From a virus (lineage: Duplodnaviria; Heunggongvirae; Uroviricota; Caudoviricetes): a DNA stretch of 36,254 bases. Positions 6,862 through 19,625 of this stretch are shown here, one piece after another; the first letter of the stretch is position 1, and each line of letters opens with the position of its first letter. The position numbers were made by a program, and so were the translations under genes. The stretch is taken from the IMG/VR virus record IMGVR_UViG_2531839432_000012; one strand, 5' to 3'. Below the pieces are notes generated by a model that searched no databases, had not been told where the DNA came from, and saw nothing but the letters and a program-made list of their open reading frames with translations.

Positions 6862-7251
6862 ATGATTGACGCTCATGACTTCACAAGATGGGTGCGCACA
6901 CAGGACACCCGTCTGGCTCCCGTTCTTCAGGGATTATTTGATCTCTACATCCGTGGTCGTGACAACAGAGCACGCACCACAAAACCGGAGAATGCAGACC
7001 CCCTTTATTTCACAGTAGACGACTGCTACCGCGTGGACTTCACACCACACGGGCTGGCGTTGCACTGCCTGACACCACACGGAGAATCACTGCTGGCGTA
7101 TTACGACTCCCCGGCCTCCGTATTTGCGGCAATGCTGGCGCATCGCACTGCTGGCGGGTGTGCCTCGCTGAGTGAATACACCGCTGAATTTAACCGCCTT
7201 TCTGCCCTCTTCTCGCAGGAGTGGCAGCGCGTGACGGGATACCAGCCATGA
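6862..7251 (+). CDS. Hypothetical early protein (129 aa) immediately upstream of the replication gene
   Basis: ORF; its stop overlaps the A start (ATGA). Confidence 0.5.
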   Translation: MIDAHDFTRWVRTQDTRLAPVLQGLFDLYIRGRDNRARTTKPENADPLYFTVDDCYRVDFTPHGLALHCLTPHGESLLAYYDSPASVFAAMLAHRTAGGCASLSEYTAEFNRLSALFSQEWQRVTGYQP

Positions 7252-10088
7252 GTGAGTTTGCATGGAGCTGGAATGAACCACGGCCAGCCATTGATCCGGC
7301 CAGATTTACGGAGCACAGGCAGGAAACTGAAACCGACCTGCAACGCGCCATCCGTTACTACCTTGAGGCAGACAAAAAGGCTCTGGAAGAACAGGAAGCG
7401 AAGGAGGAAGCCTTTTTCGCACAATCCACCGTGGGTAAAAAACTCATGGCATCCCTTGAGGAAGCCGGACAGCGTGAAAAGCTGGCACAAAGCATCATCA
7501 GCAAGCGTCAGGCAACAGAACAAGACCCGGTGGCCCGTGCTTTTGCCACACTGAAGGTGCTTCCCGTTTATCTGCGTGAACCTCTGAGCCGCCACCTCTC
7601 TTTCCTGCGCAAAAAACAGGAAGCCGATCGCCAGAAAGGCAAAAAGAGCTGGCAGGCTGAACGCTACGCGCGCGGAACCCTGCGCAAAATATTCCAACGT
7701 CTGGACCGCACCGATCACCGCTGGCTGACACCGGGTTATCGCTCCCTTGCCGGACGCGAACGCCTGGACGATTTGCTTTACCTACCGCAGCTCAACAAAC
7801 ACCAGATACAGACGCTGGCCACCATGACGGCGGCGATGTTCAGCAGCACCTTCGAAAAACTCTGCGATGGCTTTGGCGCGACTGATGGCGAACTGACCAT
7901 GGATGTAACGCTGAAGGCGTATCAGATGCTGGCCCGCATGGCGTTACACCTGCACGCCATGCCTCCACATTATGACGCACTGACAACAGACAAAAACCGG
8001 AGGAACGAACCGGACACGGAGCTGCTGCCGGGCGCAATCCTTCGCCTGACCTGTGCGGAATGGTGGAAACGCAAACTGTGGCTGTTACGTTGCGAGTGGA
8101 GAGAAGAACAACTCCGCGCCGCCTGTCTGGTTTCCAGAAAAACATCACCCTATCTGAGCCAGGACGCGTTAAGCGAGTTTCGCGCACAGCGCGACAAAAC
8201 ACGCGATTTCCTGAAAAGTTTCATGCTGGAAAATGAAGACGGGTTTACGATTGATCTCGAGACGGTGTATTACGCGGGAGTAAGTAACCCGGTTCACCGT
8301 AAGGCAGAAATGATGGCCACAATGAAGGGGCTGGAACTTCTGGCCGAAGCCCGTGGCGACAAAGCGGTGTTTCTGACTGTCACCTGCCCGTCAAAATACC
8401 ACGCCACAACAGAGAACGGTCATCCGAATCCCAAATGGAACGGGGCCACCATGCGCGACTCCAGCGATTACCTGGTTAACACGTTTTTTGCAGCGGTCCG
8501 CAAGAAACTGAACCGCGATGGCCTGCGCTGGTATGGCATCCGCACGGTGGAGCCTCACCATGACGGCACCGTGCACTGGCATATGATGGTCTTTGCTCAT
8601 CCGGAAGAAATCGACAGCATTGTGGCCATCACCCGCGATATTGCCATTCAGGAAGACCGCCACGAGCTGGGCGATGACATAACTCCGCGTTTTAAGGCGG
8701 AGTACGTAGACGGCTCAAAAGGCACACCAACCAGCTATATCGCGACCTACATCGGAAAAAACCTGGACAGCCGCGCCGTGGATGGCATCGACCCGAAAAC
8801 GGGCAAGCCACGCGTTGAGCACGAAACCGGAAAATCAATGGCAGAGAGCGTGGAACGCGCCATCGGCTGGGGGCGCCTTCACCGGGTCCGCCAGTTCCAG
8901 TTCTTTGGTATCCCCTCCCGTCAGGTGTGGCGTGAACTGCGTCGCCTTGCCAGCCAGATGGCACGCAACCCGGAAGGCCCGCAACGGCTGAAGGATGACG
9001 CAATGGACTCGGTTCTTGCTGCCGCTGATGCCGGATGTTTTGCCACCTACATAGAGAAACAGGGCGGCGTACTTGTTCCACGCAAAGACTACCTGATTCG
9101 CACCGCCTACGACCTCGCAGATGAGCTGAACGATTACGGCGAACAGAGCGTACAGATTTACGGGATCTGGTCACCACTCATCGGGGAATCCTCCCGTGTG
9201 TGCACGCACCCGGATAACTGGAAGCTGGTAAGACGTAAACCTGAAGCAGAAGACATCGCCCGCGAAAATGGTTTTGACCTTCAGGGCGGCCCTGCCGCCC
9301 CTTGGACTCGTGGCAATAACTGTCCCCGTGTACAGGAAACGGACAACAACGGGACAGAACAGCCGGAAGAACGGCCAGCACCGTGGCCGCAGCTCCCTGA
9401 CGGCGTTGAAGTGAACGTATGGATGCGCTCACTGAAACGGCACGAACGCCGGGCGCTGATGCGTTCGCTTCGTGACAAACAGGCAAAAAACAGCAGTGAT
9501 GAAATGCAGAGCTGGACACAGAGCCGCAAACAGCAGCGGCCTTTGCCTGATAACCACGAATTACTCGCTAAAGAATGGCGGGAATCTGCCGAATCTCTCG
9601 GCCTGCATATCGGTGAACAGCAGATGCAGCACCTGTTACGGGGCGGCAGCCTGTACGTTGACGGCAGCATCATTGCACCGCAGGGATTTGAAATTGTACG
9701 CAAACCGGATACCCGCCCGGACAGCCGAATCACGCAGTTCTGGCAGCGCCTGAGCCGTAATCACGGCGTAAGCAGCACGGAGATCCGCCATAACCCGGTC
9801 GCCAGCTATCTGGAACAGCTGGGGGCATCAGCCCCCGAAGCCGCCGCACGCCTGGCATCCACACTTCAGCAGGACCAGAACACCATGAAAACCCCCGTTA
9901 CCGTGCTTTCTGACATGCTGCGCGCCATCCGTGACGCAGAGCACGCACAGAGAATCAGTGAAACCACTGAACGCGCCCACCGCAAAGCAGACCTGCTGCG
10001 GGGTGGCTTGACCCGTGGGAACAAAAAACAGACAGAAACGGGATCCACGAATCCCGTAAATGACCAAAAAACGCGCAGCGATATATGA
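7248..10088 (+). CDS. A: Replication initiation protein (P2 gpA-like rolling-circle replication endonuclease), 946 aa; start taken at MSEFAWSW
   Basis: Very large early ORF at the position of P2 A after the early small genes; conserved-looking core (HxH-type segment VHWHMMVF, YIATYIGKN); identification by size, position and motifs, not a search. Confidence 0.75.
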   Translation: MSEFAWSWNEPRPAIDPARFTEHRQETETDLQRAIRYYLEADKKALEEQEAKEEAFFAQSTVGKKLMASLEEAGQREKLAQSIISKRQATEQDPVARAFATLKVLPVYLREPLSRHLSFLRKKQEADRQKGKKSWQAERYARGTLRKIFQRLDRTDHRWLTPGYRSLAGRERLDDLLYLPQLNKHQIQTLATMTAAMFSSTFEKLCDGFGATDGELTMDVTLKAYQMLARMALHLHAMPPHYDALTTDKNRRNEPDTELLPGAILRLTCAEWWKRKLWLLRCEWREEQLRAACLVSRKTSPYLSQDALSEFRAQRDKTRDFLKSFMLENEDGFTIDLETVYYAGVSNPVHRKAEMMATMKGLELLAEARGDKAVFLTVTCPSKYHATTENGHPNPKWNGATMRDSSDYLVNTFFAAVRKKLNRDGLRWYGIRTVEPHHDGTVHWHMMVFAHPEEIDSIVAITRDIAIQEDRHELGDDITPRFKAEYVDGSKGTPTSYIATYIGKNLDSRAVDGIDPKTGKPRVEHETGKSMAESVERAIGWGRLHRVRQFQFFGIPSRQVWRELRRLASQMARNPEGPQRLKDDAMDSVLAAADAGCFATYIEKQGGVLVPRKDYLIRTAYDLADELNDYGEQSVQIYGIWSPLIGESSRVCTHPDNWKLVRRKPEAEDIARENGFDLQGGPAAPWTRGNNCPRVQETDNNGTEQPEERPAPWPQLPDGVEVNVWMRSLKRHERRALMRSLRDKQAKNSSDEMQSWTQSRKQQRPLPDNHELLAKEWRESAESLGLHIGEQQMQHLLRGGSLYVDGSIIAPQGFEIVRKPDTRPDSRITQFWQRLSRNHGVSSTEIRHNPVASYLEQLGASAPEAAARLASTLQQDQNTMKTPVTVLSDMLRAIRDAEHAQRISETTERAHRKADLLRGGLTRGNKKQTETGSTNPVNDQKTRSDI

Positions 10089-10164: not shown

Positions 10165-11124
10165 ATGAAAATTTGTATCGACGACGGCTCCACCAACATC
10201 AAGCTGGCATGGACTGAGAACGGCGAACGCCGCAACGCCATCAGCCCGAACAGCTTCAAGTCGGAATGGTCTGCGCCGTTCGGTGGCACGCAGCCCGCGA
10301 ACTATATGCTTGATGGCGTGCGCTATGGTTTTGATCCGGTCAGCGATCGCTTTGTCCAGACGACCGACACGCAATACCAATACAGAGATGTGAATGTCAT
10401 TGCCATTCATCACGCGCTGGTCAAATCAGGCATCACGCCACAGGAGGTGGATGTGGTTGTCACCCTGCCACTGAGCGAGTATTTCGACACAAACGCACAG
10501 CCGGACATGGCCAACATCAACCGCAAAAAAGCGAACGTTATGCGCCCGGTGGAGTACCAGAACGGCGAAGCATTCACTATCCGTAACGTGCGGGTTATGC
10601 CTGAATCCATTCCGGCTGGCTTTAAGGCACTGGCTGACATGAGTCCGTTTGAATCCCTGCTGATTGTGGATTTGGGCGGAACCACGCTGGATGTGGCAAA
10701 GGTTCAGGGGCAACTGGCAGGTATCAGCCAGGTGTTTTGCGATCCACACGTAGGCGTTTCTCTGATGGCCGATGCCGTACTGTCGGTGATGGCCACTAAC
10801 GGTATGCGCACCAGTCACCACATCGCCAATACCATTATCGAACATCGCCATGATGAAGCCTGGCTGCGCCAGCACATCCACAATGACGCGCATTACGCCA
10901 GCCTGATGGCGGTTATTCGTGAAAAGGAAGAAACACTGAAACAACGCGTGATCCGCGCGCTGGCGGGTTTTTCGGGTTACGGTCGGGTGATGGTTGTCGG
11001 TGGCGGGGCGGAGATTGTGGCACCCGCTATCCGCGAAGCCTGCGGAGTTAATGCGACTTTCATCGCGGACGGGGTGCCACAGTTTGCTCTGGTTAATGGG
11101 CTGTACGCAATGGACAAGGAGTAA
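10165..11124 (+). CDS. parM: Actin-like segregation ATPase, ParM/StbA family
   Basis: Translation matches remembered plasmid R1 ParM over its length, including IDDGSTNIKL, VMPESIPAG, DLGGTTLD, GGGAE; good RBS. Confidence 0.85.
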   Translation: MKICIDDGSTNIKLAWTENGERRNAISPNSFKSEWSAPFGGTQPANYMLDGVRYGFDPVSDRFVQTTDTQYQYRDVNVIAIHHALVKSGITPQEVDVVVTLPLSEYFDTNAQPDMANINRKKANVMRPVEYQNGEAFTIRNVRVMPESIPAGFKALADMSPFESLLIVDLGGTTLDVAKVQGQLAGISQVFCDPHVGVSLMADAVLSVMATNGMRTSHHIANTIIEHRHDEAWLRQHIHNDAHYASLMAVIREKEETLKQRVIRALAGFSGYGRVMVVGGGAEIVAPAIREACGVNATFIADGVPQFALVNGLYAMDKE

Positions 11125-11128
11125 ACCA

Positions 11129-11440
11129 ATGACGACACCAACCAGACGGATAAGTTTCTATCTGAAGCCCGCCGCCGTCAAGAACGAAGGCGAAGCATGC
11201 GCCTGGCTGGACAGCCTTACACCAGAAGCCCGCAAAAGCGGCCAACGCGTGGCTTTTCTGGCCGGGCTGGCACTTCTGAAAATGAATCCGGCAGAGGCTT
11301 ACCGACTGGCTGCATGGGCTGATGATGAGGCGTTATCAGTGACACAAACCAGGACAGAACGCCCCGCGTCACAGCCAGTATCAACCGCACAGATAACCAG
11401 TCAGATGGCCGGAAATATCCGGGCGTTATTTCCCGAATAA
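11129..11440 (+). CDS. parR: ParR/StbB-like centromere-binding adaptor (start at ATG 11129, not 10994)
   Basis: N-terminal ISFYLKPAAV...LDSLTPEARKSGQRVAFLAGLAL resembles the remembered ParR ribbon-helix-helix N-terminus; RBS AAGGAG 7 nt upstream; immediately downstream of parM. Confidence 0.65.
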   Translation: MTTPTRRISFYLKPAAVKNEGEACAWLDSLTPEARKSGQRVAFLAGLALLKMNPAEAYRLAAWADDEALSVTQTRTERPASQPVSTAQITSQMAGNIRALFPE

Positions 11441-11503: not shown

Positions 11504-11836
11504 ATGCAACACATTGACAGAGAAAAAGCGCAGCGACTGATTGAGCGGATGGAAGCGCTGGCGAAAGAAGAAAATGTCAACATCCAAAAAATAGCTGAAT
11601 GTGGCCAGATAGTTCTTCGTCGTGAAAAAGACCTCAAACAACTGATGTCTGGCGAAACCAGCAAAACATGGACTTCAGGCGAGGAGACGGTTTATTGCAG
11701 TTTCTGCAATAAATCCCAGCACGAAGTCACAAAGGTGATTGCCGGACCGTCTGTTTACATCTGCAATGAGTGCGTGGATTTGTGCAATGAAATTATCAGG
11801 AAAGAAGTGACAGACAAAAAGGAAAAAAACGCATGA
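11504..11836 (+). CDS. ClpX-type C4 zinc-finger domain protein (110 aa), first gene of a five-gene coupled operon
   Basis: C-terminal half [37 protein letters not shown] closely resembles the N-terminal zinc-binding domain of ClpX; RBS GGGGGA upstream. Confidence 0.7.
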
Positions 11837-12168
11837 ACAGAAAACAAAAACAAGAGTTGAAATACTTTTTATGTAAAGAAATTGCCAGGCTTGAAGATGC
11901 AGAATCACAATCATCAGAAATTCCGTTCGGAATGGATATCAACGACGCCCGTATACTCCAGGCATACCGCATAGCTCAGGCTGCACTACAGGCAAAACCG
12001 TCAGATGGACTGGTTAGAGCAGTACGTTTCTATGAACTGGTAAAGCGTGAGAATCCGCCAGCCGAAACCGGAGCATGGAAAGACGCTGTTGACTGGGTGC
12101 TCAAAGAGGCTTGCCATGCTGTAAACATTGGTATCAAGGGAGGGGGATATGGCAACCAACAACCGTAA
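11833..12168 (+). CDS. Hypothetical protein (111 aa)
   Basis: Start overlaps the upstream stop (ATGA). Confidence 0.5.
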
Positions 12169-12343
12169 AGCAAAGATTCTGTTAGTTCGTAGAAACGCTC
12201 CTGGCGTCTGGCAGTGGGTGAGACTCAGCAACCGACGGATGGGGTTGATGAAATATTACGGGATGATGGATTGTGGTTTTTGCAAAAAGCCCAGCGCGGC
12301 GCAAAACCGCTGGAAAAACCACTTGCGCACTAAAGGAGAGTGA
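12149..12343 (+). CDS. Hypothetical basic protein (64 aa; start at ATG 12149 with RBS AGGGAGGGGG)
   Basis: In-frame ATG preceded by a strong RBS; overlaps the end of the previous gene. Confidence 0.45.
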   Translation: MATNNRKAKILLVRRNAPGVWQWVRLSNRRMGLMKYYGMMDCGFCKKPSAAQNRWKNHLRTKGE

Positions 12344-12344
12344 T

Positions 12345-12554
12345 ATGGCTATCGCTGCAAGTTACACCATGCATCTCTATTGTGATTGCCTCCAGTGTAC
12401 AGATGGCAAATATAAGTCGCCAGACTTCGGTGAGTATATAGGTACGTCATGGGCTGGCTGTGCAAAAGAGGCGCGCAAGGATGGCTGGCGAATAAGCAAA
12501 GACAAAACGCGTGCTTTTGCGCCCGGGCATAAAGTTTTGAGGATTAACAAATGA
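12345..12554 (+). CDS. Hypothetical Cys-rich protein (69 aa; CDCLQC motif)
   Basis: ATG with RBS AAGGAGAG; start overlaps the previous stop. Confidence 0.5.
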   Translation: MAIAASYTMHLYCDCLQCTDGKYKSPDFGEYIGTSWAGCAKEARKDGWRISKDKTRAFAPGHKVLRINK

Positions 12555-12811
12555 CCACTTTAACCGACAAAGAACTGATTAAAGAAATCAAAGAGCGCAT
12601 AGGTAGCCTGGACGTTCGAGACAATATTGAACGCCGTGCTTATGAAATTGCACTGGCATCGCTGGAAGCAGAGCCAGTAGCATGGATGCATGTAAATAAC
12701 GGCATCGGAATACCAGCAATAACAAGGAGTAAAGATGTTGCAGAGAGTTGGTTATCAAAAGGCTGGTATGTCCAACCCTTACATCTAGCCCAGCCTGCAT
12801 CAAAGCTATAG
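12551..12811 (+). CDS. Hypothetical protein (86 aa), last gene of the operon
   Basis: Start overlaps the previous stop (ATGA); followed by a terminator. Confidence 0.5.
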   Translation: MTTLTDKELIKEIKERIGSLDVRDNIERRAYEIALASLEAEPVAWMHVNNGIGIPAITRSKDVAESWLSKGWYVQPLHLAQPASKL

Positions 12812-12820
12812 AAATGAGCC

Positions 12821-12850
12821 AAACGCCCTCTTCCAGGGCGTTTATTTCAA
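12821..12850 (+). terminator. Rho-independent terminator (AAACGCCCT-cttcc-AGGGCGTTT + TATTTCA)
   Basis: Seen in sequence directly after the stop at 12811. Confidence 0.55.
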
Positions 12851-13248
12851 TGCACAATAGCGCACAAATTTGCACAATTTTTTTGAACGACTTTTTGCCC
12901 TTCCGGCCCGCGTGGCGGCTGGATCCGTCAAGGATCCGTGCGTGCACAAAAAAACGCGCTTTTTCTACGCGCAGGTGACGGGGGAACAGCCCGCGTTTCA
13001 GGGGGTAAATAGCACTCCCTGAACGATGTCGCAGCGACACAACAGAATGGCTGTATCGCTCACGCTGAGCGTGAAAAAGACGTAAGGGGTTCTGATTTGA
13101 TGGGATGAAAGGTAAGGCCGTCAAAATCGCACTGAGGCGGCGAGAAAATGCAGTCAGCGCGGTGGGATTGTGTAAGAGTCTGGCCGTCGATGATAGCGAT
13201 AAGTCGGAAGACGTCGTGAAATTATCTGATTGATACGGGAGCTGGAGA

Positions 13249-13277
13249 GCCGGGGCATAAATTTTTTATGCCCCGGC
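13249..13277. other. Perfect 29-bp palindrome GCCGGGGCATAAATTTTTTATGCCCCGGC (hairpin or protein-binding site) inside a 565-bp non-coding region
   Basis: Seen in sequence. Confidence 0.4.
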
Positions 13278-13376
13278 GAAGCAGCAGACAAGCGAAGCGC
13301 GTCAGTGATGCAGCACCTTGCCGACCACACTTCATAAGTGCAAAATACGAGCAAAGAAATCAATGGAGGCTGTTTT

Positions 13377-13901
13377 ATGGTCATTAATTACAAGCAGTTA
13401 CGAGAAAAACGAGAGCAGGTAAAGGAAAGTTTTCGCCGCAATGAAGATCTGACCCCGCTTGTACACCTTGCCCAGGGAATTGTTGATGCTTATGAAATCT
13501 CTCTGGAGCTGCCATCACAGACATGGACGGATAGCGATGGTAATCGCCAGCATTACGTTTCATGCGGACTGGAAACAACTGAAGGGGTTCGCAGAATGCC
13601 TTTATCTCAGATTCCTGCCGCTACCCCCAAAGCAAGGGGCGGCAATGATGAGCGAAAACTGATTTTCAGCATTGAGACAGTGGTTGACGACACACCTGGC
13701 GAAGTCGCGTTCGTGCATACTCCTCTTTCGATCGCAATGTATAACGATGAAATACAGGTTCGCGTTAATAATAATATCGTGCCACTTAAAGAAGGTAATT
13801 CACCATACACCACCGTTTGTGAAGCCATCCAATATTACGTTCTCTCTGAAATTGATAATCTCAAGCCTGACGGCACCCAGAAAATGGTTCAACTCTGGTA
13901 A
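13377..13901 (+). CDS. Hypothetical protein (174 aa; start at ATG 13377 with RBS GGAGG)
   Basis: ORF convergent with the portal gene; no recognisable motif. Confidence 0.55.
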   Translation: MVINYKQLREKREQVKESFRRNEDLTPLVHLAQGIVDAYEISLELPSQTWTDSDGNRQHYVSCGLETTEGVRRMPLSQIPAATPKARGGNDERKLIFSIETVVDDTPGEVAFVHTPLSIAMYNDEIQVRVNNNIVPLKEGNSPYTTVCEAIQYYVLSEIDNLKPDGTQKMVQLW

Positions 13902-13907
13902 AAAGGA

Positions 13908-13932
13908 CAGCCCCATCACGGGGCTGTTTTTT
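13908..13932. terminator. Bidirectional terminator-like hairpin (CAGCCCCATCACGGGGCTG + TTTTTT) between the convergent 13377..13901 gene and portal gene Q
   Basis: Seen in sequence; overlaps the last codons of Q. Confidence 0.5.
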
Positions 13933-14962
13933 CATCAAGAAGAGCATAAGAATTAAAACGGATCACCTCTTCACCAAGCCAGTCATTGATGTGCTTCATG
14001 GCCTCCATGACAGGCATCAGCTCGTTAATTGCGTAAACCCGCGCTGCCTTCTCCACATCACCAAACGCACTTTTTTCGCCCGGCATCGCCCCCATCAGTT
14101 GCGGCGGAACGCGGTGCGAAGCCAGCACATCATCACGGGATGCCGCCTTAACATTCATGAACTCATCCTTTGCGGTGATCTGCTGGAACGGCAAAATTTG
14201 CACCCCCTCTTTGCCCCCGTTGGGCGCATGAATGAGCACGTTTTTAAACGCACCACCACCACGTGCCCCCTGTAGCGTTTCCTTCAGGGAGTCCATGCTT
14301 TCGCGGTTTACCTGCGCTGCACCGATGTAGATGATGCACCCGGCGTGGGATCCGTTGTCGTAGTACAGCTTTCTGAACATGTCCGCCGAATGAGACAGGC
14401 TGGCCGAGAGTAATGCGCCAAGATATTCCGGCATGCCGTAGATTTCCTGGTTAATATCCGGATTCATCAGGTGGCACACTTTGCCAGGGCGAAACTGAAA
14501 CGCGTCCTTGCCATCCTGTACATACCACCATGATTCAAGATCGCTTCCGCGTCGCATGTATTTCGCCAGGGCGTGCCGTAATTTAAGCGGTTCGCCGAGC
14601 ATATTGCTTCGAAGCTCAAGGAATGCGTTACCGAATACAAACCAGTCCAGCGCCAGCGCCGAGAAATCCTGCCGGGAAAGCAGCGGGGGCGGAATATAGC
14701 AACCGAGCAATACATTGCGCTTAAAGTAAAGCGCAGACTGATGCCAGGACGTTTGCCGGGCGGCTCTTGCCAGACCGTACCAGTCCACCGGGGTTTCATA
14801 CCACCGCCCGTTATCAGCACAGTACATATTGTCCAGCAAATCATGCCCGGTCAGGCGATAAGGACCATCAAATGTGAATGCACTGAGCGATGATTCTTTC
14901 CTGAGCGCATCAGCGAGATCAATGCGTGAACTCATGCGCACTTTTTTATTTTTTCTGCTCAT
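13916..14962 (-). CDS. Q: Portal protein (P2 gpQ-like)
   Basis: 348-aa ORF directly downstream of and overlapping the large terminase gene, divergent from the O-N-M-L operon as in P2; size matches gpQ. Confidence 0.8.
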   Translation of the reverse strand: MSRKNKKVRMSSRIDLADALRKESSLSAFTFDGPYRLTGHDLLDNMYCADNGRWYETPVDWYGLARAARQTSWHQSALYFKRNVLLGCYIPPPLLSRQDFSALALDWFVFGNAFLELRSNMLGEPLKLRHALAKYMRRGSDLESWWYVQDGKDAFQFRPGKVCHLMNPDINQEIYGMPEYLGALLSASLSHSADMFRKLYYDNGSHAGCIIYIGAAQVNRESMDSLKETLQGARGGGAFKNVLIHAPNGGKEGVQILPFQQITAKDEFMNVKAASRDDVLASHRVPPQLMGAMPGEKSAFGDVEKAARVYAINELMPVMEAMKHINDWLGEEVIRFNSYALLDEKTAP

Positions 14963-16713
14963 CAGAACTCCATAACCGTGAAACGCTCGTTTTCTCCTTC
15001 GCCGCCAATCGGTTCGTTAATGACAGCAAGCATGGTTGCCCACGCAAGGTCGCCGTGGCTGATCCCCCTCGCGCGGTCCGTTTCGTAAGTGATAAAGCCG
15101 CCCGGTGTTTTCACCTTACGCACGGCGTTAAAGGCCGCGACCAGCTCGCGTTCGGCGCGATCGTATTCCCACCGCCCGGCACGCATTATTTGCAGCATTT
15201 TCAGTACCAGCGACCGTTTTGATGACAGCGTGAAGGTGTACGGAATAGCAGCAGGGAAAAACCGTTTCACTATCTGATAAACAGCCTCCCCGTTCCCGCC
15301 CGTCACATCAATGCCGATGTGTTCCACGTTGTAGCGATACGTGAACTCTTCAATGACTCTGGCCTGTTCTTCAAACTCCAGCCCCTGAACGCGTCGCGTC
15401 TCCACCGTTCGAAAACGGCCACCAGGAACAGCCGGAGGAACCACCACGGACACAGCGCCGCTGTCGCCGTTGCCACTGCTGCCGTTTGCGTCATACCCAA
15501 TCCATACCGGACGATTTCCCATCGGGCGGGGAGCAAAAGGTTTCCAGTCTTTCCAGTCGTCGTATCCGTCAACGCCGCAGCCAATCAGGATATTCAGGTT
15601 AAATGCCGATTCCCCTTCGCGGACAAACTCACACATATAGAGATTGCGGAACTCGTCTTCGGTGTTTTCATCACGAATTTCATCAATATCGGTGTGTTTC
15701 CAGCCGTGATTAACCACATCTTCCAGCGTGACAATTTGCCGCCACGTCCGGTCGGGGCAGATAAGCCCGTTATGCAGCGTTTTCCAGTCCACAGAAAAAC
15801 GCTGGCGTTTATGCGCGGCCTTTTTCTCGTTCCAGCGGTCGCCGTTCCAGTAGACGTATGCCTCGTGCGTTTCGGTTGATGGCGTGGAGAAGTAGGTGCG
15901 CCGCAGTCCGCTGAGGGTTGCCATAGCGCCAGCCACCTTGCGCAGTTCAGCAAAGCGACTGACCCAGAAAAATTCATCAAAATAAAAATTGCCTGTGTAG
16001 GACTGTGCCGTCGCAGCAGAAGTACCGAGAAAATGCAGTTCTGCGCCGTTGGAGAGGATGATTTTATCGCCCCCTTTCAGCTCCACATCAACTTCAGCCG
16101 CGGCCTTCTGAATAATGCTTTTAAACTGGAACGCCTGACGACGCGACGCAGACAAAAAAATCTGGTTACGCTGGTAAGGTTGTGCCACATCGTCACGCAG
16201 CGCCATCAGCAGTGCTTCCTGTGCAAAATACCAGGTCGCCCCAATCTGTCGGGATTTCAGGATCATCCTGTTACGTATCCCGGCTTCACTGCAAAGGGTC
16301 AGGGAGTCAAACCAGCCCCGCTGATGCCACTCCAGCCTGCTGATGATTTTTTCCCGCAGTGCGGCAATCTGCTCCGGCGTGAAATGATTTTTAAGTTTTT
16401 TCGCCCGGCCTTTCTTTCCTGTGGCCGTCGCATCCGGCTGGCCATCATGCAGTTTTTTAAGCTGCCGGGTCAGCAGGTCTATTTCCTTGAAGTCACCACC
16501 TGTTTTATTCTGTTTTTCAGTAAGCTGGATGAGGCGCGCATCGATGGATTGCGTGACACGCTGCACGGGTGGCGTTTCATCCCACTGGTCGCGTTTTTTC
16601 CACGCATAAATCGTGTTCGGGTTTATTCCCATCAGACGTGATATTTCTGCGGGCGGATAACCCTGCCAGTAAAGTTGCCGCGCACGCTGGCGCACAAAAG
16701 CGTCCTGAATCAT
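14962..16713 (-). CDS. P: Terminase large (ATPase) subunit (P2 gpP-like)
   Basis: 583-aa ORF with N-terminal HTH-like segment (YWQGYPPAEISRLMGINPNTIYAWKKRD) and terminase-like core; P2 gene order. Confidence 0.85.
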   Translation of the reverse strand: MIQDAFVRQRARQLYWQGYPPAEISRLMGINPNTIYAWKKRDQWDETPPVQRVTQSIDARLIQLTEKQNKTGGDFKEIDLLTRQLKKLHDGQPDATATGKKGRAKKLKNHFTPEQIAALREKIISRLEWHQRGWFDSLTLCSEAGIRNRMILKSRQIGATWYFAQEALLMALRDDVAQPYQRNQIFLSASRRQAFQFKSIIQKAAAEVDVELKGGDKIILSNGAELHFLGTSAATAQSYTGNFYFDEFFWVSRFAELRKVAGAMATLSGLRRTYFSTPSTETHEAYVYWNGDRWNEKKAAHKRQRFSVDWKTLHNGLICPDRTWRQIVTLEDVVNHGWKHTDIDEIRDENTEDEFRNLYMCEFVREGESAFNLNILIGCGVDGYDDWKDWKPFAPRPMGNRPVWIGYDANGSSGNGDSGAVSVVVPPAVPGGRFRTVETRRVQGLEFEEQARVIEEFTYRYNVEHIGIDVTGGNGEAVYQIVKRFFPAAIPYTFTLSSKRSLVLKMLQIMRAGRWEYDRAERELVAAFNAVRKVKTPGGFITYETDRARGISHGDLAWATMLAVINEPIGGEGENERFTVMEF

Positions 16714-18824: not shown

Positions 18825-19625
18825 ATGATTACTCCTGCACAGCAACACTGGCAGAACGTGATGGCACAGCGCGCAGGCCGGGCGAATGAAGGCGTGGACC
18901 ACGCCGCGCGTACCGCGCATGAAGAGGTGCTGTATCGTCTGCGTCTGGCACAGGCCCGGCTTAAGGGCGTACAGGCCAGAAGCGCGAAAGCCGCCATCAA
19001 AAAAGAGTTATTGCCGGACTTTTCCGGCTGGATTGAGGGAACGCTGGAGGCTGACGGCGGGCAGCAGGATGAAGTGATTGCCACGCTGATGGTCTGGGCG
19101 ATTGACTGCGGCGATCTTCCGCTGGCGCTGCGTATTGGTGCATATGTGGTCCGTCACAACCTCATCATGCCGGATAACTTTGGACGTACTGCTGCCACGG
19201 TACTGACCGAAGAAATCTGTAATCCGGTACTGACGCAGGCCGGGACGGATGCCGACGCGGATTTGTCCGCCTTTATCGAACCACTGGACACCCTCCGGGA
19301 GATTGTCACCGACCAGGACATGCCGGACGAAGTGCGCGCCAAATTATGCAAAGCGTGCGCCTTTGCCCGCCGTGGCCTGAGTGATACGGACAGCATGGCC
19401 CTGTCACTGAAGCTGCTGCGCGAAGCAATGCACCTGAACCCGAACGCAGGTGTGAAACGCGAGATTGCAACCCTTTCCCGCGCCCTGAAAAAAGCCGATC
19501 CCGCAGCCGCACCAGAAGACGCCAGCGCACAGCAGACGCAGGACGAAAGCAGCAAAAGTAAAAAGACAACGCGGAAGCCTGCAACACGAAAAACCACCGC
19601 GACGCAGAAGGCGAAGCGCGGTTAA
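18825..19625 (+). CDS. M: Terminase small / endonuclease subunit (P2 gpM-like)
   Basis: 266-aa ORF in the conserved position after N; basic C-terminal tail. Confidence 0.75.
   Translation: MITPAQQHWQNVMAQRAGRANEGVDHAARTAHEEVLYRLRLAQARLKGVQARSAKAAIKKELLPDFSGWIEGTLEADGGQQDEVIATLMVWAIDCGDLPLALRIGAYVVRHNLIMPDNFGRTAATVLTEEICNPVLTQAGTDADADLSAFIEPLDTLREIVTDQDMPDEVRAKLCKACAFARRGLSDTDSMALSLKLLREAMHLNPNAGVKREIATLSRALKKADPAAAPEDASAQQTQDESSKSKKTTRKPATRKTTATQKAKRG

Follow-up and report, generated by a model that had tools for sequence, protein, structure and literature searches.

Identification of a probable cos site

The DNA analysed here (36,254 nucleotides, referred to as the window; IMG/VR record IMGVR_UViG_2531839432_000012) is a P88-like prophage of the P2 family (Xuanwuvirus, Peduoviridae), and the cohesive-end (cos) site of this P88-type prophage very probably lies at positions 12851-12999 (+). 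Elements of this kind are known; the present one has diverged in sequence, while its recognition motifs keep their spacing. As delimited here, it is composed of three phased repeats (R1-R3), a spacer, a fourth repeat (R4), the predicted nicking site (cosN) and a few bp to the right of the latter. An initial annotation of the sequence had placed a cos or packaging site between the accessory genes and the portal gene, and had taken the whole of 12812-13376 as candidate. This placement is supported by position, by conservation across lineages and by a repeat spacing that is exact to the nucleotide, but it holds for about 12851-12999, the left third of the interval, and not for the remainder. The assignment gives the predicted genome ends of a very common type of Escherichia coli prophage, marks the fixed boundary of a cos-adjacent hotspot for defence and cargo genes, corrects a spurious open reading frame (ORF) annotation over the interval, and makes P2-family cos sites recognisable by motif spacing where sequence alignment fails.

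Sequences related to 12500-14000 were retrieved by megablast from phages P88, P88_4B11, vB_EcoM-569R5, PhiR44_2 and Citrobacter phiSM at 91-94 % identity. The site occupies the position of a P2-family cos: on one side of it lies the accessory hotspot that follows replication gene A, and on the other the 3' end of the portal gene. The replication endonuclease, a gpA homologue (7221-10088), is encoded upstream of the accessory ORFs, which are small and extend up to 12811, the last being ORF 12551-12811. On the other side, the genes for the portal (13916-14962 (-), Pfam Phage_portal) and for the large terminase, a gpP homologue (14962-16713 (-), Pfam Terminase_6N/6C), are both transcribed towards cos. 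Scaffold, capsid and small terminase are encoded on the plus strand beyond the large terminase, the small terminase being a gpM homologue (18825-19625 (+), PF05944 at 6e-37). The large terminase displays the N-terminal helix-turn-helix (HTH) of gpP type (Pfam Terminase_5/HTH_23 at residues 6-63). The same element thereby encodes a cognate terminase of gpM (PF05944) plus gpP (Terminase_5 HTH with Terminase_6), and its gpM and gpP homologues are 36 % and 44 % identical to those of P2, respectively.

Repeats R1 (TGCACAA, 12851), R2 (CGCACAA, 12861) and R3 (TGCACAA, 12871) are phased at 10 bp and, together with a tract of seven T, cover 12851-12884 (+). The three GCACAA copies of the initial annotation are thus present, at 12852-12857, 12862-12867 and 12872-12877, with a spacing of exactly 10 bp, and one more copy, at 12944-12949, had been overlooked. 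The latter belongs to R4, a TGCACAA followed by an A-tract (12943-12955 (+)), which is the counterpart of TGCATTAAAAC in P2, 186 and P4. The word TGCACAA is found nine times in the window against 9.5 expected, three of the nine falling within 99 bp. R2 begins with CGCA in the window and with TGCA in most relatives. Between R3 and R4 lies a spacer (12885-12942), and R4 is followed by a conserved G-rich box, GGTGACGGGGGAACAGCCC (12974-12992). Both G-rich boxes of the initial annotation exist, although they start at 12974 (GGTGACGGGGGAACAGCC) and at 13134 (GAGGCGGCGAGAAAATGCA) rather than near 12976 and 13133.

The geometry of the site was compared with reference cos sites. For P2, 186 and P4, in whose records the cohesive ends are annotated on experimental grounds, the two ends of each record were joined; five P4-like satellites (from Enterobacter, Tatumella, Citrobacter, Kluyvera and Photorhabdus) and a sixth that is near-identical to P4 were added. 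In P2, 186, P4 and the P4-like satellites, words with a TGCA core are found at -124/-123, -111, -101 and -29 from the top-strand nick. The window displays all four repeats, with TGCA at -123, -103 and -31 from 12974 and CGCA at -113, i.e. the reference layout with its register displaced by 2 nt. A fixed-spacing pattern, TGCA-N68-TGCA-N32-CGGGG, was written from P2, 186 and P4 only and matched once in each of nine P2-type elements. It matched a single time in the 36-kb window, at 12871-12983 (+), and in none of 100 shuffled sequences. The distance of 72 bp from R3 to R4 is also that of P2, 186, P4 and six satellites. In P2, 186 and P4 the top strand is nicked 29 nt past the T of R4; the same offset (12943 + 29 = 12972) gives a predicted cosN with a 19-nt cohesive end, CAGGTGACGGGGGAACAGC, at 12972-12990 (+), within +/- 2 nt. 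CGGGG stands at +7 of this predicted cosN, as in P2, and 11 out of 19 positions are identical to the P2 cohesive end in the register defined by the geometry.

The second G-rich box (13134-13152) had also been likened to P2 cosN. Cleavage at this box, with the upstream repeats serving something else, is very improbable. By eye it looks more P2-like than the first box, and a gapped alignment to positions 1-28 of P2 can be drawn (GAGGCGG..GAAA..GCA..GCGCG); it also lies ~100 nt from the portal-proximal hairpin described below, to be compared with 140 nt between P2 cos and terminator tQ. The likeness does not hold, however, since the score of this alignment, 16, is that of shuffled sequences (mean 16.0 +/- 2.1). 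Moreover, the second box is restricted to close P88-like relatives, is missing from lineages in which the repeats and the first box still adjoin the portal gene, and is not preceded by TGCA repeats at -29, -101 and -111, the fixed-spacing pattern being satisfied around the first box only.

Conservation across lineages

Among close P88-like relatives the block 12851-13306 was 90-95 % identical, which says little because these phages are close kin. The limits of conservation were more informative. In 64 distinct P88-like sequences, conservation begins abruptly at 12851, where the variable cargo ends, and Enterobacter phage phiT5282H (Novemvirus) matched only 12844-12995, at 74 % identity. Prophages of Klebsiella (Reipivirus) kept a variant of the box. 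From ~13000 rightward, the second G-rich box included, the sequence differs between lineages.

The exact 18-mer GGTGACGGGGGAACAGCC was used as search key in a scan of IMG/VR and retrieved at least 120 contigs. Among the matches listed, a portal homologue follows the box in 113 out of 120 contigs; six of the other seven end before the portal position and one is a chance match in unrelated GC-rich sequence. In the 113 loci listed, the distance from box to portal stop was 190-330 bp, or ~590-930 bp in loci that, like the window, carry an inserted cassette. The portals of these matches were 67 to 99 % identical to that of the window, and repeats and box were also kept where the portals were only 67-77 % identical; the upstream replication protein was only ~30 % identical in ~40 of the 113 loci listed.

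Twenty-four representative sequences, covering P88-like and more distant lineages, were aligned. Fixed features were the three repeats phased at 10 bp with their T-tract, R4 with its A-tract, the block GCGCGCA-GGTGACGGGGGAACAGCCC-NCG and a GG a few bases further right. The TGCAC core of R4 was invariant and its A-tract nearly so, and R1-R3 formed the best conserved block apart from the box, on which the selection was made. Spacing was nearly constant in 92 distinct P88-type flanks: R1-R2 measured 10 bp in 89 and R2-R3 10 bp in 90 of them, R3-R4 measured 72 bp from start to start in 89, and R4 was followed by GGTGAC at 31 bp in 87. The sequence of the R3-R4 spacer was mostly lineage-specific. 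A 156-bp core was present in 1101 out of 5426 complete E. coli genomes, nearly always accompanied by the full P88-type block.

These distributions bear on a different reading of the phased GCACAA repeats, as a centromere or operator belonging to the accessory genes, for instance a parC-like site for ParM/ParR (10165-11440). The ParM (PF06406/PF21523) and partition protein are encoded ~1.4 kb upstream of the repeats, and partition centromeres typically display phased short direct repeats. Repeats with identical spacing to the box were nevertheless found in lineages with entirely different hotspot cargo devoid of ParM, such as phiT5282H, which carries an AAA ATPase and an S8 peptidase instead. 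Conservation stops on the left at 12851, which indicates that the repeats go with the portal side rather than with the cargo, and in P2, 186 and P4 equivalent repeats are found at matching distances from the proven nick of cos. A centromere or operator is scarcely credible on these grounds.

Two loci displayed further variants of the site. In Klebsiella phage Kp4845-1 (Reipivirus; locus L006, 1340-1420) the repeat words are mixed (TGCACAG, TGCGTAA and TGCATTC) and cosN is the variant GGTGACGGGGGGCAAGCCC; in sequence, these words are intermediates between TGCAT of P2 and TGCACAA of the P88 type. A prophage of E. coli LZSFT34 (NZ_CP132728.1; locus L139, 2031-2175) carries a third cos variant, CAGGCGACGAGGGAAGGGC, with a different cosN (GCGCA-GGCGACGAGGGAAGGGCGCCC). 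This third variant keeps the repeat geometry, with 72 bp from R3 to R4, and the same GCGCA-GG junction at R4 + 29.

The tandem repeat of the initial annotation exists as a pair of GGATCCGT within the R3-R4 spacer, ~10 nt to the right of where it had been drawn (12921-12928 and 12932-12939, not 12911-12930); as a packaging feature it is set aside, falling as it does in lineage-specific spacer. The pair gives two GATC sites, i.e. Dam sites, at 12922-12925 and 12933-12936. GATC is found in the spacer of about two-thirds of the 24 representatives, though the neighbouring spacer sequence varies. Cleavage at the pac site of phage P1 is regulated by Dam. Three other candidate features were discarded: an inverted repeat flanking cosN (ACGCG/CGCGT) and dyads rich in GC within the spacer, both seen in the lineage of the window, were inconsistent across lineages, and the T and A tracts gave no convincing match to the consensus of an integration host factor (IHF) site.

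Proposed packaging mechanism

P4-like satellites match P2 and 186 from the first repeat through cosN and diverge ~7 bp to the right of it. They are informative on the extent of the site because satellites need only the packaging signal from the repertoire of their helper. P88-type lineages display the same asymmetry of conservation. The extent in satellites and this asymmetry are the reason why 12851-12999 is taken as the functional cos, with its recognition part on the side of the accessory genes.

During lytic growth, the terminase (the gpM homologue of 18825-19625 with the gpP homologue of 14962-16713) would dock on four repeats exposed on the same face of the helix, three at 12851, 12861 and 12871, 10 bp apart, and the fourth 72 bp further on at 12943. 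Staggered nicks would then be introduced in the G-rich cosN, ~29 nt past the fourth repeat, and are predicted 5' of 12972 on the top strand and after 12990 on the bottom strand (+/- 2 nt). Virions would accordingly carry cohesive ends reading 5'-CAGGTGACGGGGGAACAGC; the exact nick positions and the 19-nt 5' overhang are predictions, length and polarity being assumed from P2 and 186. The intervals between the repeats (10, 10 and 72 bp) come close to whole helical turns, and repeats phased in this way may, by analogy with cosB of lambda, serve to position the terminase; R1-R3 are proposed to form the recognition (cosB-like) element. The gpM homologue and the N-terminal HTH of the gpP homologue are candidate readers of the repeats.

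Several points weigh against this assignment. The alignment to P2 and 186 cos that the initial annotation had put forward as a check found nothing: Smith-Waterman scores of the P2, 186 and P4 junctions against 12800-13400 equalled the mean of shuffled sequences, and nhmmer, run with a profile built from nine P2-type cos sites, found no match at 12850-13000. Neither the 55-bp core of P2, 186 and P4 nor their 19-nt cosN is alignable to the window, and because alignment to P2-type cos fails, the identification rests on position, cross-lineage conservation and motif geometry. The invariance of the box in the IMG/VR set is partly ascertainment, the box being the search key, although the repeats were not used for selection. 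The argument that the extent is sufficient for packaging is borrowed from the P2 type, because none of 86 P4-like satellites (six GTDB and 80 IMG/VR loci) harbored the P88-type cos or its repeat word; all of them carry the P2/186 type. No report of terminase binding to the repeats was found for any P2-family phage in the accessible literature, and no ends at the predicted nick were found among public records and contigs.

Apparent ends near the site had other causes. Four loci (L120, L048, L099 and L019) seemed to start 5-60 nt from the box, at boundaries of IMG/VR storage chunks and not at contig ends. The linear record of P88_4B11 opens inside the R3-R4 spacer, by arbitrary circular permutation. 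A true contig end in locus L072 (IMGVR_UViG_2681813261_000011) is due to an IS1 inserted at cosN: in the last 49 nt of the contig, the IS1 end is joined directly to ...CA-GGTGACGGGGG. As IS1 lies inside its predicted cosN, the L072 prophage should be unable to package. The literature searched contained neither a published cos for Xuanwuvirus or P88 nor a phage-related occurrence of the box sequence.

The lack of physical ends in public records, together with three stable hairpins (12820-12844, 13249-13277 and 13907-13927), would fit an interval that is merely an intergenic regulatory or terminator region between convergent units, with packaging initiated elsewhere or by a headful mechanism. 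This is very improbable for an element whose terminase is of the P2 cos type and in whose 36 kb the P2-family cos geometry is matched nowhere else. Terminators, moreover, offer no explanation for four phased repeats and a G-rich box kept at fixed spacing across genera.

Packaging specificity

A packaging specificity of the P88 type distinct from that of P2 is suspected, because repeat word, cosN and both terminase subunits (36 % and 44 % identity) differ from those of P2 and because no satellite matches. Going further, and tentatively, with somewhat less than even confidence, the P88-type cos may represent a separate packaging-specificity class, in which word and cosN were replaced together with a small terminase of 36 % identity around a fixed 10/72/29-bp scaffold. 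If so, P88-type phages, present in ~20 % of complete E. coli genomes, would go unrecognised by P4-type satellites and would constitute an orthogonal helper and packaging system; what is truly invariant in the cos recognition of the P2 family would then be the spacing scaffold. The prediction is that no cross-packaging occurs between P88-type phages on the one hand and P2-type phages or P4 satellites on the other.

Remainder of the interval and neighbouring genes

On the left, a terminator-like hairpin closes the accessory genes after ORF 12551-12811 (12820-12844 (+), 9-bp stem, -15.2 kcal/mol, z = -4.8). It was called by the terminator scan and lies in variable cargo, just outside the conserved cos block. 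To the right of the site, the non-coding stretch 13000-13248, which includes the second G-rich box, was found only in close P88-like relatives; the phiT5282H and Kp4845 types and further lineages lack it, although they retain the repeats and the first box. An Rfam scan of 12000-14500 at E <= 1 found no family. Positions 12987-13079 displayed weak similarity (73 %, E = 4e-3) to a stretch of phages 434 and 2B8 that is non-coding or annotated 'putative membrane protein', which may be due to chance.

The initial annotation saw no ORF in the interval. Mechanically defined ORFs do cross it (12748-12978, 12870-13022 and 13105-13233, as well as 13154-13384 (-) and 12588-13124 (-)), but no credible gene was found among them. 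ORF 13105-13233 (42 aa) is annotated 'hypothetical protein' in P88 (SF19_gp22) and in P88_4B11 (VUD40162.1). In 64 distinct P88-like relatives, its variable sites were distributed 24/22/21 over the codon phases and its start codon varied, and the minus-strand ORF 13154-13384 was broken in all 64. For want of codon-phase bias, with a varying start and broken frames, 13105-13233 and the minus-strand ORFs were rejected as coding; the 42-aa 'hypothetical protein' that spans the second G-rich box was probably annotated in error.

The 29-bp palindrome reported at 13249-13277 has perfect arms of 13 nt each, around a central TTT that is not symmetric. Its stem of 13 bp gives -31.6 and -29.3 kcal/mol on the two strands (z -6.7 and -5.8), a stable GC-rich stem-loop such as an intrinsic terminator requires. 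A U-tract is lacking, the stem being followed by GAAGCAGC on the plus and by TCTCCAGC on the minus strand, and the terminator scan made no call at 13249-13277; the hairpin is terminator-like by position only. It belongs to the 3' end of the portal gene and is not a feature of cos. In P88 and P88_4B11 the portal stop is followed by its counterpart after 25 nt. In the P2-like prophage of E. coli LZSFT34, which is otherwise different, the hairpin adjoins the portal gene within the same module of 62 bp, between convergent genes, and a cargo ORF lies between cos and the module. The hairpin holds the position of tQ in P2 and tW in 186, downstream of the portal gene; unlike these, it stands ~640 bp from that gene in the window, pushed off by a cassette.

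This inserted cassette (611 bp, 13305-13915 (+)) lies between hairpin and portal gene, at the ancestral portal stop. Its ORF (13377-13901, 174 aa), which begins at 13377 and not at 13378, matches phrog_5091 (1.4e-65), a family of unknown function, and had no Pfam, PADLOC or NCBIfam match. A canonical bidirectional terminator (13907-13927) overlaps the portal stop codon (13916-13918) and reaches beyond the right edge of the cassette. The cassette is absent in P88, where the portal stop follows directly, and present in vB_EcoM-569R5 and PhiR44_2; among the IMG/VR matches listed, it was also found in the class of loci with a portal distance of 927. The ctx gene of phage phiCTX is likewise cargo on the portal side of cos.

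The accessory genes on the other side are diverse. ParM (10165-11124, Pfam), with its two domains, is encoded next to a small partition protein (10165-11440 for the pair) inside a P2-like prophage, which suggests a plasmid-like maintenance or DNA-positioning function. A 110-aa protein (11504-11836) consists of little beyond a ClpX-type C4 zinc finger (PF06689, 2.9e-18) and might mimic the N-domain of ClpX or compete with it; its label in the P88 record, 'carboxylate-amine ligase', is wrong. The DNA of the ORFs just left of cos (12273-12811) shares ~84 % identity with genes from the Ea22 region of lambdoid and Stx2-converting phages, and these ORFs are therefore cargo common to unrelated phage families at the cos-adjacent hotspot.

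Comparison with known cos sites

The cos site of phage lambda is organised as cosQ-cosN-cosB, with phased R sites for the small terminase gpNu1. The P88-type site is alike in outline, a nicking site with phased short repeats on one side that presumably position the terminase. Lambda cos, however, shares no sequence or protein homology with the window and differs by its 12-nt overhang, its IHF-dependent bending and its terminase family, and the analogy is a lead on mechanism only.

Closer parallels are encountered in P2, 186 and P4, whose cohesive ends are 19-nt 5' extensions (GGCGAGGCGGGGAAAGCAC / GGCGTGGCGGGGAAAGCAT) and whose cos contains a '55-bp core' described by Ziermann & Calendar 1990, as cited in PMC5694545 and PMC9122126. 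P2 and 186 display the same order as the window, i.e. accessory hotspot, cos, terminator and portal 3' end, with a likewise G-rich cosN and the same gpM plus gpP terminase type. Three phased TGCA-core repeats, then an A-tract repeat 29 nt before the nick, are common to the window and to P2, 186 and P4. The repeat word is TGCAT(G/T) in the latter and TGCACAA in the window, and R1-R2 spacing is 12-13 bp there versus 10 bp in the window. The flanks of the window's cos are unalignable with those of P2, 186 and P4. The cos sites of P2 and 186 are found 187-196 bp beyond the portal stop; measured from cosN to the ancestral portal stop, the distance is ~330 bp in the P88 type versus ~170 bp in P2 and 186.

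Cohesive ends from two other sources resemble the box of the window. The end predicted for the Salmonella P2-like phages SEN4 and SEN5, ggcgaggcgggggaacgag, has the 9-mer CGGGGGAAC in common with the window in register and is identical at 11 out of 19 positions overall (PMC5261728). Ralstonia phage RSA1, from a different genus, displays the predicted cohesive end GGTGAGGCGGGGTCCAAC (PMC5694545), whose GGTGA start is also that of the window's box. Compared as cohesive-end sequences only, the ends of SEN4/5 and RSA1 appear as intermediates that link P2 cosN to the box of the P88 type.

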